A stretch of 36,016 bases of DNA from Candidatus Andersenbacteria bacterium RIFCSPHIGHO2_02_FULL_45_11 (GCA_001817055.1 MHHP01000021.1:1-36016); one strand, 5' to 3'. Shown: positions 8,168 through 32,932, counted from the first letter of the stretch. Made by a program: numbers and translations. Notes: generated by a model not told the origin, from the sequence alone.

Positions 8168-8698
8168 ATGACTGAATCAATATTGGAACCGGACCTTGTA
8201 GGGAAACTCTTTATGTTTGCGCACGATGCGCATACTAATCATAATCTGCGGGGCGAAGATCATGTTATTCGCAGAGGGTTATACCCGTACATTATCCACC
8301 CTATGTGGGCGGCCGGAACGCTTGTTGCAGATCCTACATTGCCGAAAGAAGAACGAATACTTGGGTATCAAATACTAGTTTTGCATGACGTGCTTGAAGA
8401 TACTTCTATAAAACTGCCCGAATGGGTAAGCGAAGAAGTGAAATCCGGAGTGCAGGCGTTAACACATGACAATTGGGAAGAAGAACAAGATGCAGTTACA
8501 CACTACACGCCCTTTTTAAAGCTTTTGAAACTCTGCGACAAAATCCAAACAATGTATGAACTTGCAATAGTAGATCCAAAAAAGGCACATGAATGGAAAC
8601 AGTTAATTGAACGCTTAGTGGTTGATGTTGAGGCGCACTACGGCAAAACGCGCGTAGTCGTGATTGCAAAGGCACTGCTTGAAGATACGGACTGGTAG
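8168..8698 (+). CDS. HD-domain hydrolase, SpoT/Mesh1-like ((p)ppGpp pyrophosphohydrolase-type fold)
   Basis: RRGLYPYIIHPMWAAG...LVLHDVLEDT matches the RxxGxPYxxHPLxVA...LLHDxxEDT signature. The start is ambiguous. ATG 8168 lies 9 nt after TATAGT (8153-8158). In-frame ATGs also occur at 8159 and 8114. Confidence 0.65.
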   Translation: MTESILEPDLVGKLFMFAHDAHTNHNLRGEDHVIRRGLYPYIIHPMWAAGTLVADPTLPKEERILGYQILVLHDVLEDTSIKLPEWVSEEVKSGVQALTHDNWEEEQDAVTHYTPFLKLLKLCDKIQTMYELAIVDPKKAHEWKQLIERLVVDVEAHYGKTRVVVIAKALLEDTDW

Positions 8699-8845
8699 CG
8701 TCGCGCTCCCTTCTCCTGTTTTGGGAGAAGGTTAGCTTTGCCTTTGTGCAAAGCGCGGATGAGGGGAAGTGAATAGCAGCTAACGCCCCTCACCCCTGCC
8801 TGCCGGCAGGCAGGCTAGCCCTCTCCCAGAACGGGAGAGGGGAAC
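8699..8845 (+). repeat. Composite GC-rich hairpin repeat, family B, copy 1 (fills the convergent HD/comFC spacer)
   Basis: Four modules are present: hairpin ccttctcc/ggagaagg (8709-8731); an extra hairpin gctttgc/gcaaagc (8735-8754); gagggg...cccctc; and a perfect 20-bp palindrome cctgcctgccggcaggcagg (8795-8814), followed by hairpin ccctctccc/gggagaggg (8819-8841). It is colinear with 23487-23596 and with the reverse complement of 14259-14378. Confidence 0.85.
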
Positions 8846-8854
8846 GGCCAATTC

Positions 8855-9625
8855 TCACCCTCTCGCTACCACCGCGCCCCAGATTTGTGCGTTGGGAATA
8901 CTTGGTAACACCGATGCCGCCGACGAAAGCGTTGAGCCCGTTGTGGTGACATCGTCTATGATAATTACAATGGATTTTTGCTGGACAAGAGTTTTGTACG
9001 CTTCTTCTGATATCGCTAACGAAAACGCATCTTTCATGTTTTCGCTTCGAAGCGTATGTGGCAAGTTTGCTTGCGAAGATGTGGAAACGGTGCGCTGTAG
9101 AATAGGCGCAACTTGAATATTGCAGATGCGCCCAATTACATTGGCGATATCTTCACTTTGGTTAAAGCCTCGTGTACGCTGGCGCCACGAATGTAGGGGG
9201 AGGGGGACAAGTACAGCGTGTTCTGATAGCTCTTGTATGGGCGCAATAGTTGTAATGCGTGGAATGAGGAGCGCTGCCATAATCTCTGCAAGTGGCCGGA
9301 TGCCTTTAAATTTGAGCCATTCAATACCACGCTGCAACGCTTGATTGGAATATGTGCCTACGCTTACGACGCCCGTGAGAACAGTTTCCTCACGGCATGC
9401 AATGCATGTTGTGCCGCGAAATCGCTCTTCTTTGCATATAATGCACGTAAGAATATGGGGCGGCACGGTTGCCCTGCACTCTTTGCAATACCATGTTCCT
9501 TCTAGTAGGCACTGGATACACCGCGCAGGGGCCAGCGCATCACGCAAGCCCTCTGCTAATTCAACGAGATGCTGATACGGCTTCAACCTGTGCAACAACA
9601 ATAGAGCTTCCTGATTTGCGCGCAT
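8855..9625 (-). CDS. comFC: ComF-family protein (ComFC-like phosphoribosyltransferase-domain competence protein)
   Basis: N-terminal Cys-rich CxxC...CxxC zinc-finger region, LVPLPLH..R...RGFNQ motif and a C-terminal PRT motif IIIDDVTTTGSTL. The start is uncertain. ATG 9625 overlaps the clpC 3' end by 65 nt, and the longest form starts at 9673. Confidence 0.75.
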   Translation of the reverse strand: MRANQEALLLLHRLKPYQHLVELAEGLRDALAPARCIQCLLEGTWYCKECRATVPPHILTCIICKEERFRGTTCIACREETVLTGVVSVGTYSNQALQRGIEWLKFKGIRPLAEIMAALLIPRITTIAPIQELSEHAVLVPLPLHSWRQRTRGFNQSEDIANVIGRICNIQVAPILQRTVSTSSQANLPHTLRSENMKDAFSLAISEEAYKTLVQQKSIVIIIDDVTTTGSTLSSAASVLPSIPNAQIWGAVVARG

Positions 9626-14243: not shown

Positions 14244-14258
14244 TGTTTATATAGTTAT

Positions 14259-14378
14259 CCCCTCGCCCCGGATGGGGAGAGGGTTAGCCTGCCTGCCGGC
14301 AGGGGTGAGGGGCCGTTAAGTCGACTAATTTCCCCTCATCCTCGCCTTCTCCCCGTCAGGGGAGAAGGGAGCGGCTAC
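14259..14378 (-). repeat. Composite GC-rich hairpin repeat, family B, copy 2 (lemA-htpX spacer, inverted orientation)
   Basis: The reverse complement reads gctcccttctcccctgacggggagaaggcgaggatgagggga...cccctcacccctgccggcaggcaggctaaccctctccccatccggggcgagggg, colinear with the copies at 8699 and 23487. Confidence 0.85.
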
Positions 14379-14379
14379 G

Positions 14380-23469: not shown

Positions 23470-24168
23470 ATGAAGTTCGTGACATTCGTTCGCGCTCCCT
23501 TCTCCCCAGACGGGGAGAAGGCGAGGATGAGGGGGTATCGTCGCGCCCATTTTCCCCTCACCCCAACCCTCTCCCCGTCCGGGGCGAGGGGGGCTACGAT
23601 GGGCTTTTCCCTCGTCGAATCTCTCGTTATCATTTCCATTATCAGTATATTGGCTTCGTTGTCTTTGGTTGCCCTTCCGGCTGCGCGTGCGCACCAGCAG
23701 CTTATTTCGGATACTGAACTGATACAGTCGTTATTGCTAGATACAAAAGAGCGTGCATTAAATCAGGTACGCCCAGAAGGGTGCCTACGAGATGATTCAA
23801 ATCCAGAATCGGCAGATCGCGCTGCCTGTTCAGATGTAGGGATTATATTTGAAGGCGGTAAAGTTATGCAGTTCGCTAATATTGCAGGAGGAACAGAAGA
23901 AGATCCGGACTATGTCTATAGTGGTGACACAGAGCATCCTATTGTAGAGCACCAACTTCTTACGTCTGTAGTTGAGGAGGAAGAGGGTGGCGTAAGGCAA
24001 ATCCTGTTTCGGTCTGTTCCGCCATCCGTTGAGACGTATAAAGATGGGGCAGTTATGGAGCCGAAAGATACTGCACATATAACGCTCAAAGCGAGTAATG
24101 GAGAATTACGCAAGCTCGCGGTGAGTCAGTTTGGTACACTAGATATTGTTAATGATTATGCAAAATAA
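23470..24168 (+). CDS. Minor (pseudo)pilin with a prepilin N-terminal motif
   Basis: G|FSLVESLVIISIISILASL. The long form starts at ATG 23470, giving a 44-aa leader encoded almost wholly by repeat B3. An alternative ATG at 23599 gives MG|FSLVE, with a GAGGGGGG element from the repeat upstream. Confidence 0.7.
   Translation: MKFVTFVRAPFSPDGEKARMRGYRRAHFPLTPTLSPSGARGATMGFSLVESLVIISIISILASLSLVALPAARAHQQLISDTELIQSLLLDTKERALNQVRPEGCLRDDSNPESADRAACSDVGIIFEGGKVMQFANIAGGTEEDPDYVYSGDTEHPIVEHQLLTSVVEEEEGGVRQILFRSVPPSVETYKDGAVMEPKDTAHITLKASNGELRKLAVSQFGTLDIVNDYAK
23487..23596 (+). repeat. Composite GC-rich hairpin repeat, family B, copy 3 (5' end of a minor pilin gene)
   Basis: cgcgctcccttctccccagacggggagaaggcgaggatgaggggg...cccctcaccccaaccctctccccgtccggggcgagggg. 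It lacks the 20-bp palindrome module present in copies 1 and 2. Confidence 0.85.
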
Positions 24169-31866: not shown

Positions 31867-32932
31867 AGAGCTTGCAGAAGTTTCGGATGCATCTGCCTTA
31901 GAGGCATGGCGCGTTTTATATATCGGGCGAAAGGGAAAACTCCCTGAGCTGCTTCGTGGTGTTAAGGATTTAGGCGATGAAGAAAAGAGAGTGATTGGTA
32001 AAGCGGCGAATATATTAAAGAGAACACTTGAAGAAGCATATTCTGTAAAACAAGAGTCGTTTATCGCATCCGCACCTAATAAGCTAATGAAAGCCCTGCC
32101 TGCCGGCAGGCAGGTACAAGCTAACGAAGCTAGCGTAGGCCATTTGCATCCGATCACACTTACGATTGAACGTGTGCAAAATATTTTTGCGGCTATGGGC
32201 TTCATTATCGCCGATGGCCCGGAAGTGGAAGAGGCAAGATATAACTTTGATGCACTAAATATTCCGTCAGATCATCCTGCTCGTGGAGAAGGGGATACGT
32301 TTATGATTGATCCTAAGAGTGTGAGTGGGGAACAGGATGTAGTGCTGCGTACGCAAACATCGCCGATGCAGATCCGATCCGTGGAAACGATGCGCCTCAC
32401 CCCGCCATTTTATGTAATTGCTCCAGGCCGAGTATATCTAAGGGAAAAAGTAGATGCAACACACGAATCAACGTTTTATCAATTTGAGGGCTTAGGAATA
32501 GGGGAGGATATAACAATTGCAGATTTTAAGGGGGTTATTGCTGCATTCTTTTCTACATTCTTTCAAAAAGACGTAACCGTGCGTCTACGTCCTTCATACT
32601 TTCCGTTTGTCGAGCCTGGATTTGAAGTTGATATGAGTTGCGTTTTTTGTGCTCAAAAAGGGTGCAGGGTTTGTAAGTACACAGGTTGGATTGAAGTAAT
32701 GGGTGCTGGCATGGTACATCCGAACGTACTCAAAAATATGAATATTGATCCAACGAAGTATCAGGGCTTCGCCTTCGGTGGCGCTATTGATCGGCTTACA
32801 ATGATCCGACATGGTATTAACGATATTAGGATGTTTTGGAGTGGAGATATTAGGTTTTTACGACAGTTCTCGAACTGTCATTCCGGCCCCCGAGCCGGAA
32901 TCCACGTGGATGCCGGATCAAGTCCGGCATGA
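31817..32932 (+). CDS. pheS: Phenylalanine--tRNA ligase alpha subunit, with a repeat-derived C-terminal extension
   Basis: HPARGEGDTF, RTQTSPMQIR, FRPSYFPFVEPG and GAGMVHPNVL class II motifs. The conserved end ..GDIRFLRQF is followed by 20 extra codons (SNCHSGPRAGIHVDAGSSPA) and a stop from a palindromic element. An alternative ATG lies at 31826. Confidence 0.9.
   Translation: MTDMEQQLEDLQKQANKELAEVSDASALEAWRVLYIGRKGKLPELLRGVKDLGDEEKRVIGKAANILKRTLEEAYSVKQESFIASAPNKLMKALPAGRQVQANEASVGHLHPITLTIERVQNIFAAMGFIIADGPEVEEARYNFDALNIPSDHPARGEGDTFMIDPKSVSGEQDVVLRTQTSPMQIRSVETMRLTPPFYVIAPGRVYLREKVDATHESTFYQFEGLGIGEDITIADFKGVIAAFFSTFFQKDVTVRLRPSYFPFVEPGFEVDMSCVFCAQKGCRVCKYTGWIEVMGAGMVHPNVLKNMNIDPTKYQGFAFGGAIDRLTMIRHGINDIRMFWSGDIRFLRQFSNCHSGPRAGIHVDAGSSPA
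32095..32114. repeat. Perfect 20-bp palindrome cctgcctgccggcaggcagg inside pheS
   Basis: Identical to 8795-8814 (a module of repeat B1). A 16-bp version lies at 14288-14303. Here it is translated as (A)LPAGRQV. Confidence 0.85.

Follow-up and report, generated by a model that had tools for sequence, protein, structure and literature searches.

Three composite hairpin elements are found in a 36,016-nt stretch of DNA from Candidatus Andersenbacteria bacterium RIFCSPHIGHO2_02_FULL_45_11 (hereafter the window), which is contig 21 of an 884-kb, 45% G+C, 95.6%-complete assembly. Examination of the sequence alone had described them as copies of one modular repeat, family B, with REP/BIME-like behaviour in an AT-leaning genome (with 45% G+C measured, it leans only mildly), and had suggested that their stacked hairpins could act on transcripts. 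What are these elements made of, and which activity, if any, could have dispersed them and kept them in the genome?

Inspection of the sequence located the three copies in the window (Table 1), and the order of modules first proposed holds in each of them: hairpin A, a box, a spacer of about 19 nt, a second box and hairpin C. Written in one orientation, hairpin A of the three copies is CCCTTCTCC(C/T)-loop-GGAGAAGG; it is followed by the box GGATGAGGGG, by the spacer, then by the box CCCCTCACCCC. Hairpin C is CCCTCTCCC-loop-GGG(A/C)GAGGG and terminates in GGGGAACG. The differences announced between copies are also there: copy 1 has an extra hairpin, named X hereafter, and a 20-nt palindrome, named P, copy 2 has a 16-nt form of P, and copy 3 has neither. 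Folded as single-stranded DNA, the three copies did far better than shuffled sequences (z-scores -5.4, -4.4 and -2.1), and the prediction gives two competing structures, either stacked local hairpins or a long stem joining one arm to the other. An Rfam scan of the window returned only tRNAs, and no known RNA family at the elements.

Table 1. Positions of family-B copies, their parts and related features. Positions refer to the window unless a contig is named.
Feature	Position	Strand	Remarks
Copy 1, entire insert between stops of two convergent genes	8699-8854	+	TAG 8696-8698; TCA 8855-8857 (TGA on minus strand)
Copy 1, hairpin A of left arm (CCCTTCTCC / GGAGAAGG), first two blocks (pyrimidine, purine) of left triplex-type unit	8708-8731	+	8/9 pairs invariant
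Copy 1, optional hairpin X (GCTTTGC-CTTTGT-GCAAAGC), second loop of left unit	8735-8754	+	compensatory changes
Copy 1, box GGATGAGGGG, third (mirror-image) block of left unit	8757-8766	+	
Copy 1, central variable spacer	8767-8785	+	site of DUF559 gene in gene-bearing cassettes
Copy 1, box CCCCTCACCCC, complement of right unit's third block GGGGTGAGGGG	8786-8796	+	
Copy 1, palindrome P (CCTGCCTGCCGGCAGGCAGG), second loop of right unit	8795-8814	.	20 nt, perfect
Copy 1, right-arm hairpin C (CCCTCTCCC / GGGAGAGGG)	8819-8842	+	then terminal AACG
Copy 2, whole lemA-htpX spacer	14244-14379	-	
Copy 2, hairpin A	14345-14369	-	
Copy 2, boxes	14332-14341, 14302-14312	-	
Copy 2, shortened palindrome	about 14288-14303	-	
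Copy 2, hairpin C	14259-14283	-	
Copy 3, in frame inside prepilin leader	about 23485-23598	+	no X, no P
Copy 3, hairpin A	23497-23521	+	
Copy 3, boxes	23525-23534, 23554-23564	+	
Copy 3, hairpin C	23567-23591	+	
Strict TMECO match, copy 3 right arm	23555-23590	-	
Solitary palindrome P	32095-32114	.	outside any family-B element
Other solitary P sites	contigs C4 7687, C8 2770, C12 1310 and 12284, C14 20583, C22 6801, C26 7365, C33 9814, C40 12209		
Solo right arms with extended flanks	contigs C34 (587, 6952, 12264, 20221), C20 3273, C37 14051		
RAYT-like Y1_Tnp gene (about 217-265 aa for the two)	contig C8 5107-5331	+	locus L020
RAYT-like Y1_Tnp gene	contig C17 13593-13814	-	locus L021

The proposal of a repeat family hinged on further copies elsewhere in the genome, and these were found. 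Searches by BLAST and by motif, along with a covariance model derived from an alignment of 22 full copies, yielded 23 full copies of 95 to 165 nt, together with about 20 half copies reduced to the right arm; the model itself gave 106 strand-hits in the genome. In the alignment of the 22 full copies, 45 columns are invariant and the flanks are unconserved. Conservation stops at CG-N-TC on the left side and at GGAACG on the right side, so that the termini of family B are themselves inverted. The spacer is homologous among copies yet strongly diverged, the closest pair of copies being 93% identical and the median being 73%. Invariant arms around a diverged spacer mean that the arms are held constant while the middle drifts, and the alignment thus shows a sequence constraint acting on the arms. 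Given that even the best pair reaches only 93% identity, there is no sign of recent movement in this genome. Among 13 congeners with genomes of similar size, 10 contain family B, and model hits range from 0 to 76 per genome.

The 20 solo arms indicate that units persist without their partner arm. Six of them share flanks (CGATA before, CG(A/G)TAGAAGGAA after) and form a distinct half-element sub-family. Hybrid elements were also observed on contigs C17 (12435-12602) and C31 (20343-20533), where a left arm from a foreign family (CCTCCCCTC..GAGGGGAGG plus GGTGGGGT) is joined to a family-B right arm over 80-130 nt.

The likeness to REP/BIME elements holds for the general behaviour, since copies are dispersed, modular and mosaic, with modules gained and lost, but the arms themselves are not REPs: they are triplex motifs of the BoxC/PIT/TMECO type. 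Repeats of this type have been known since the 1990s and are present in hundreds of genomes. The class was reportedly described by Bergler in 1992 and by Hoyne et al. in 2000, and to our knowledge neither a function nor a partner protein has been assigned to this class of repeats. The search of the genome made use of the consensus published for TMECO, CCCTCNCCC-N3-6-GGGNGAGGG-N3-GGGNGAGGG (Holder et al. 2015, PMC4666352). It has 29 strict matches in this genome versus 0 in 20 shuffles, and 11 further matches when a longer second loop is allowed. These matches correspond to family-B right arms read on the other strand, including the TTA second loop and the one-mismatch variant of the published motif. 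The strict match of the window falls on the right arm of copy 3, and copies 1 and 2 fit the consensus once the second loop may hold the palindrome. The left arm, present at 22 sites, follows this design with a variant sequence, CCTTCTCC / GGAGAAGG / GGATGAGG.

The third block of each arm reads as the mirror image of its purine stem, save for one A changed to T: GGGAGAGGG is followed by GGGTGAGGG in the right arm, and GGAGAAGG by GGATGAGG in the left arm. A mirror block with this A to T change is what an antiparallel purine-motif triplex requires. Overall, about 159 triplex-type units belonging to several stem classes were counted in 884 kb, and none in a shuffle. As both arms follow the triplex-type design, family B shows up in these comparisons as a dispersed, tail-to-tail inverted dimer of BoxC/PIT/TMECO-class units. 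Each unit runs from a pyrimidine stem through a first loop, a purine stem and a second loop to the G-rich mirror block, and the G-rich blocks of the two units meet head-on with the spacer of about 19 nt between them. The gatgagggg...cccctcacccc stem of the sequence-only reading consists of these two third blocks.

The same design gives a place to the optional modules. X is lodged in the second loop of the left unit, and P in that of the right unit. Among 59 copies from ten species, 46 have a hairpin in slot X; stems of at least 11 kinds enclose a conserved CTTTGT loop there, and several other hairpin types occur as well. The slot between CCCCTCACCCC and hairpin C accommodates at least 4 different hairpins. 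Covariance of the stems, which had been proposed as a check, is informative for X, where 6 of 9 pairs change on both sides. It is not for the three core stems, which never vary in the alignment of full copies and are therefore silent about pairing. These pair counts exclude one covariance-model alignment (A3), in which both strands of the quasi-palindromic copies are mixed. Palindrome P (CCTGCCTGCCGGCAGGCAGG, centre GCCGGC) has 16 sites in the genome, of which 4 are in family-B second loops, 2 in the second loop of another repeat family, and 10 solitary; it is an independent small dispersed repeat. Identical spacers were found joined to different arm subtypes, as in copy 2 and the element at contig C1 39346, which shows that modules are reshuffled between copies.

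Where do these elements sit? Orthologous sites devoid of the element were found in congeners for all three loci of the window. Copy 1 fills the gap between the stops of two convergent genes, as had been stated for HD and comFC; the ComF label is borne out (E 3e-24), but the HD label relies on a weak match (E 3e-4). These stops are 156 nt apart here, and they abut in congener G013 (TAG directly followed by CTA), the C-termini being the same. Copy 2 fills the gap between lemA and htpX, again as described, with an insert of 136 nt. In G001 and G005, lemA and htpX overlap by a GTGA stop/start; in G004 they are separated by a 55-nt spacer from which the element is absent; in G011 and G012, the site holds different dimers in the opposite orientation. 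The lemA stop is TAG in the present genome versus TGA in the two GTGA-coupled congeners (loci L040 and L041).

Copy 3 was found within a gene rather than between genes: it is located in frame in the leader of a prepilin gene, between the ATG at 23470 and the GFSLVE motif at 23602. The pilin gene of relatives starts with an ATG located 4-8 nt past the pilD stop, and its leader has 3-8 residues. With the ATG of 23470 at the equivalent place and the element in frame, the pilin leader has been lengthened to 45 residues; the ATG at 23599 is a possible restart. The orthologous pilin gene of G011 (contig C40, L177), also located downstream of pilD, carries in its leader another hairpin, rich in G+C and inserted in frame (MSENNSKQK-GLPREAPPVGGSKW-GFSLVE). 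With two leaders containing an in-frame hairpin, prepilin leaders seem to be a recurrent, tolerated landing place.

Another full family-B copy was found in frame (contig C34 8221-8324) within an ORF for a membrane protein of 826 aa. This ORF (contig C34 6959-9436, minus strand) has at least four in-frame repeat-derived segments, and it ends inside a solo right arm (tail ...RYPSPHPSPRLGRGR, then stop). Apart from these in-frame exceptions, at least two in number, copies are mostly intergenic, and most lie 1-35 nt past a stop codon. In tandem gene contexts, hairpin A is beside the upstream stop in about 11 copies, versus 3 in the reverse orientation. No target-site duplication common to more than 4 of the 23 copies was detected when all offsets were considered for lengths of 3-8 nt, and no defined cut site was found at the termini of the same 23 copies. 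At the level of sequence, filled and empty sites show that family-B copies were inserted at gene boundaries, and in a lineage-specific way.

Such positions could reflect a role in RNA: the host would keep stacked hairpins in 3' untranslated regions as terminators, attenuators or stabilisers of mRNA. The proximity of most copies to a stop codon, the preferred orientation of hairpin A towards the upstream stop, the strong folds and the compensatory changes that preserve pairing in slot X all speak for such a role. However, no U-tract follows the hairpins, and a scan for intrinsic terminators gave a single weak match among the three copies, in copy 1, with a regional count not above that of shuffles. 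Congeners lack an insert at the corresponding intergenic sites, their genes even overlapping or abutting there, and this argues against a needed local role; some copies are moreover in frame inside coding sequence. The mirror third block would have no role in an RNA hairpin. E. coli PIT elements showed neither promoter nor terminator activity, and purine-motif triplexes do not form in RNA (PMC4666352). We thus do not retain the role as terminator or attenuator that had been suggested, and consider an RNA-level explanation unlikely.

Alternatively, the triplex units could be of use to the host as DNA structures, be it as rearrangement hot spots, replication pauses or sites for nucleoid proteins, with the DUF559 nuclease introduced below processing or repairing them. 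The TMECO motif forms a triplex in vitro, and its sites are tied to raised local rearrangement in E. coli strains (Holder et al., PMC4666352). The invariance of the arms next to drifting spacers would fit with this, as would the lemA-htpX site, which holds different elements in three species. Yet in E. coli, footprinting carried out in vivo gave no support for a stable triplex (PMC4666352). Congeners whose genomes are similar in size have anywhere from 0 to 76 model hits, which speaks against a function that the host needs. Copies inside genes, for their part, look like tolerated damage. Altogether, we find a host-serving structure quite improbable.

A gene was nevertheless found to share the arms of family B. 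The genome holds three intact DUF559 genes, all bracketed by inverted triplex-type arms. Their products match PF04480 with E values of 1e-30 to 3e-33, above the Pfam cut-off, and PDB entry 3HRL with an E value of 2e-15. Residues D42, E53, D55 and H59 are invariant among them, and they are 39-56% identical to each other: DUF559 is single-copy for each arm type, and each lineage is diverged. The gene on contig C14 has the family-B hairpin C and GGGGTGAGGGG at both ends, along with a second-loop hairpin similar to that of two family-B copies. None of the three genes carries the left-arm type. A DUF559 cassette of congeners G013, G009 and G007, however, has the exact right arm of family B on its 5' side and the left arm on its 3' side. 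Family B read backwards is thus a cassette without its gene, and the comparison of arms shows it to be the gene-less form of a roughly 0.5-kb cassette for a DUF559 nuclease, predicted to be Vsr/PD-(D/E)xK-like. Some family-B spacers resemble the 5' junction of the cassette, e.g. TTAGTTGCGA...TTAATT. Beside one DUF559 cassette, a UvrC-like ORF (L024 214-1452, plus strand, contig C18) was noticed to contain, in frame, a segment derived from a repeat (..SLPLSQGGVGGGEV..), as well as a masked stretch of N.

We then looked at the distribution of both partners among 40 relatives. DUF559 is present in 8 of the 8 relatives with at least 20 model hits, and Y1_Tnp, the transposase domain of RAYTs, in only 4 of those 8. 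Among the 24 relatives without any model hit, a strong DUF559 match was found in 3 and a weak one in 2; the three strong carriers may serve other arm families. Four relatives have 2-4 family-B model hits and no detected DUF559. As these genomes are kin, the co-occurrence of DUF559 and family B among them is not independent evidence. A scan with one genome per species gave more than 594 relatives of the DUF559 proteins, in many phyla. In loci taken across phyla, a triplex-type unit flanks DUF559 in 69 of 96 cases, and does so on both sides in 41 of 96. The mirror rule, by which G answers to G and A to A or T, holds across 25 stem types near DUF559 genes of many phyla and breaks down once tails are exchanged between loci: it is perfectly followed in 41 of 368 cases, versus 43 of 1840 in the control with swapped tails. 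A DUF559 locus of Rufibacter (Bacteroidota) reads GTTCCTTCTCCC-TCA-GGGAGAAGG-TTA-GGATGAGGGG, which is almost the left arm of family B, and in two DUF559 loci, proteobacterial or acidobacterial, the corresponding slot of the second loop is occupied by a small hairpin. The motif class is already in print; in the literature searched, we found described neither the pairing of DUF559 with repeats nor a dimer with second-loop slots.

A more classical partner, namely a RAYT or IS200-type transposase, had been proposed as the enzyme to look for. Two RAYT-like Y1_Tnp genes are present in the genome and flanked by inverted repeats, but these repeats (TTCCAAGG..CCTTGGAA hairpins; CAACCCTTACCTTCGAAGTA) bear no relation to family B, and only 5-7 dispersed copies of each exist. 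Judging from these repeats, the Y1_Tnp genes make up a separate small REP-like system. Could family B still be an ordinary REP/BIME system mobilised by a RAYT, i.e. an IS200-like tyrosine transposase? The dimer has a REPIN-like layout and, as REPINs, makes no target duplication, and triplets resembling TAG or GTAG are often found just outside its termini. These outer TAG/TAA triplets, however, are at a variable distance and mostly are the stop codons of neighbouring genes, and the arms differ from the GTAG and CGTC families of REPs described so far. In addition, no Y1_Tnp gene was detected in four congeners rich in repeats, G003, G007, G009 and G012, although the genome of G012 is 99% complete. 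We regard mobilisation by a RAYT as very improbable.

Classification of family B as a GTAG- or CGTC-tagged REP was considered separately and rejected: its termini, CG-N-TCCC and GGGAACG, do not fit the described families, and the CGTC families have A/T pairs at stem positions one and two as well as CCA tails, unlike family B.

The reading that best accounts for these observations jointly, with a probability that we estimate at roughly 60%, is that family B is a selfish-type, non-coding dimer of triplex units, the gene-less version of a DUF559 cassette, inserted at gene boundaries or in frame in dispensable parts of coding sequence, and that DUF559, we infer, would copy or maintain it. This nuclease would be the best candidate enzyme for maintaining or spreading the repeats. 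Such a scheme would start with the folding of the arms in single-stranded DNA. The nuclease, encoded by a single-copy gene, would recognise these structures and nick near the CG-N-TCCC termini, and nicking would lead to the copying or maintenance of gene-less dimers without target duplication. The relation of DUF559 to the dimers would parallel that of RAYTs serving REPINs, with an unrelated enzyme. Several observations go against DUF559 as a mover: no recent copies, no cut site found, many solo arms, and low-copy occurrences of family B without detected DUF559.

In the main rival explanation, DUF559 is a passenger, or a homing-type parasite, lodged in the spacer of a pre-existing dimer. Dimers would then spread or persist through recombination, through replication errors at folded DNA, or thanks to another host enzyme. 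Vsr-like nucleases are indeed known as homing endonucleases (I-Bth0305I), which we count in favour of a passenger, and solo arms and gene-less dimers far outnumber DUF559 genes. Four relatives have family B at low copy number and no detected DUF559, and the likeness of some spacers to the cassette 5' junction fits the insertion of a gene as well as its deletion. On the other hand, one would expect a homing gene to have left several near-identical copies among so many targets. DUF559 is single-copy in each lineage, with 39-56% identity between lineages and, on a qualitative match, an arm type proper to each, and this argues against a passenger; moreover, all repeat-rich genomes carry DUF559. 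A passenger DUF559 is therefore, to our mind, rather doubtful.

The role proposed here for DUF559 in copying or maintaining family B can be extended beyond this genome. DUF559 proteins may be the dedicated partner enzymes of BoxC/PIT/TMECO repeats, forming a RAYT/REPIN-like system of Vsr fold across phyla. They would recognise the arm hairpin together with its mirror block, the hairpin with the CTTTGT loop being accessory, and dimers would be copied or maintained without target duplication, even into reading frames. We put forward this wider proposal tentatively, as a possibility that we do not favour at present.

If DUF559 does act on the arms, a very large protein family of "unknown function" and an orphan class of repeats would explain each other. 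The present locus offers a compact case, in 0.9 Mb, of REPIN-like dimers whose optional modules can all be placed at a single point of the structure, namely the second loop. Sister species allow filled sites to be set against empty ones down to the codon, and the hypotheses of a RAYT or of a DUF559 partner can be separated by their distribution across genomes. There is also a consequence for annotation: the elements cause false ORF extensions and in-frame inserts, for instance in pilin leaders, and gene callers should recognise them.

How does family B compare with known systems? The BIMEs of enterobacteria are mosaics of REPs and other motifs. Family B is likewise a modular mosaic, with optional motifs between palindromic units, and is mostly located after genes, but its units are triplex-type motifs and not REPs. 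The palindromic elements of Rickettsia (RPEs) are palindromic repeats that Ogata et al. reportedly found, in 2000, to be tolerated in frame within protein-coding genes, and we know of no partner gene for them. The in-frame copies of family B, in the pilin leader (copy 3) and in the membrane protein of contig C34 (8221-8324), are reminiscent of RPEs; in contrast to these, most family-B copies are intergenic, and there is no sequence relation between the two. MITEs are non-autonomous derivatives that arise from IS elements by deletion. As these, family B is short, has inverted terminal arms and resembles a gene-bearing element minus its gene; in contrast to them, no target-site duplication was found around it, and the gene-bearing form with the same arms encodes a DUF559 nuclease in place of a DDE or other known transposase.

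With BoxC/PIT/TMECO repeats, family B shares the three-block layout (pyrimidine, purine, mirror purine), the multi-copy and mostly intergenic state, and the lack of a transposase nearby. It differs from them in that its units come in inverted pairs around a homologous spacer, the left one of each pair being a sequence variant, in that its second loop often has an extra hairpin, and in that some copies are in frame inside genes. Its host, with a 0.9-Mb genome, belongs to the Patescibacteria. Family-B arms also bracket DUF559 genes, whereas Holder et al. found no mobility genes beside TMECO sites (PMC4666352).

The closest parallel is the REPIN-RAYT system (Bertels and Rainey 2011, PMC3116915; PMC3337134). 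As in that system, we found hairpins in an inverted doublet around a variable spacer, singlets alongside doublets, many gene-less copies together with one gene, in single copy, between repeats of the same kind, and no target duplication. Inheritance also appears to be mostly vertical, and copy numbers are very unequal among relatives. Two differences set family B apart from REPINs: the gene flanked by its arms encodes a Vsr-like DUF559 nuclease instead of an HUH tyrosine transposase, and these arms have a third, mirror block.
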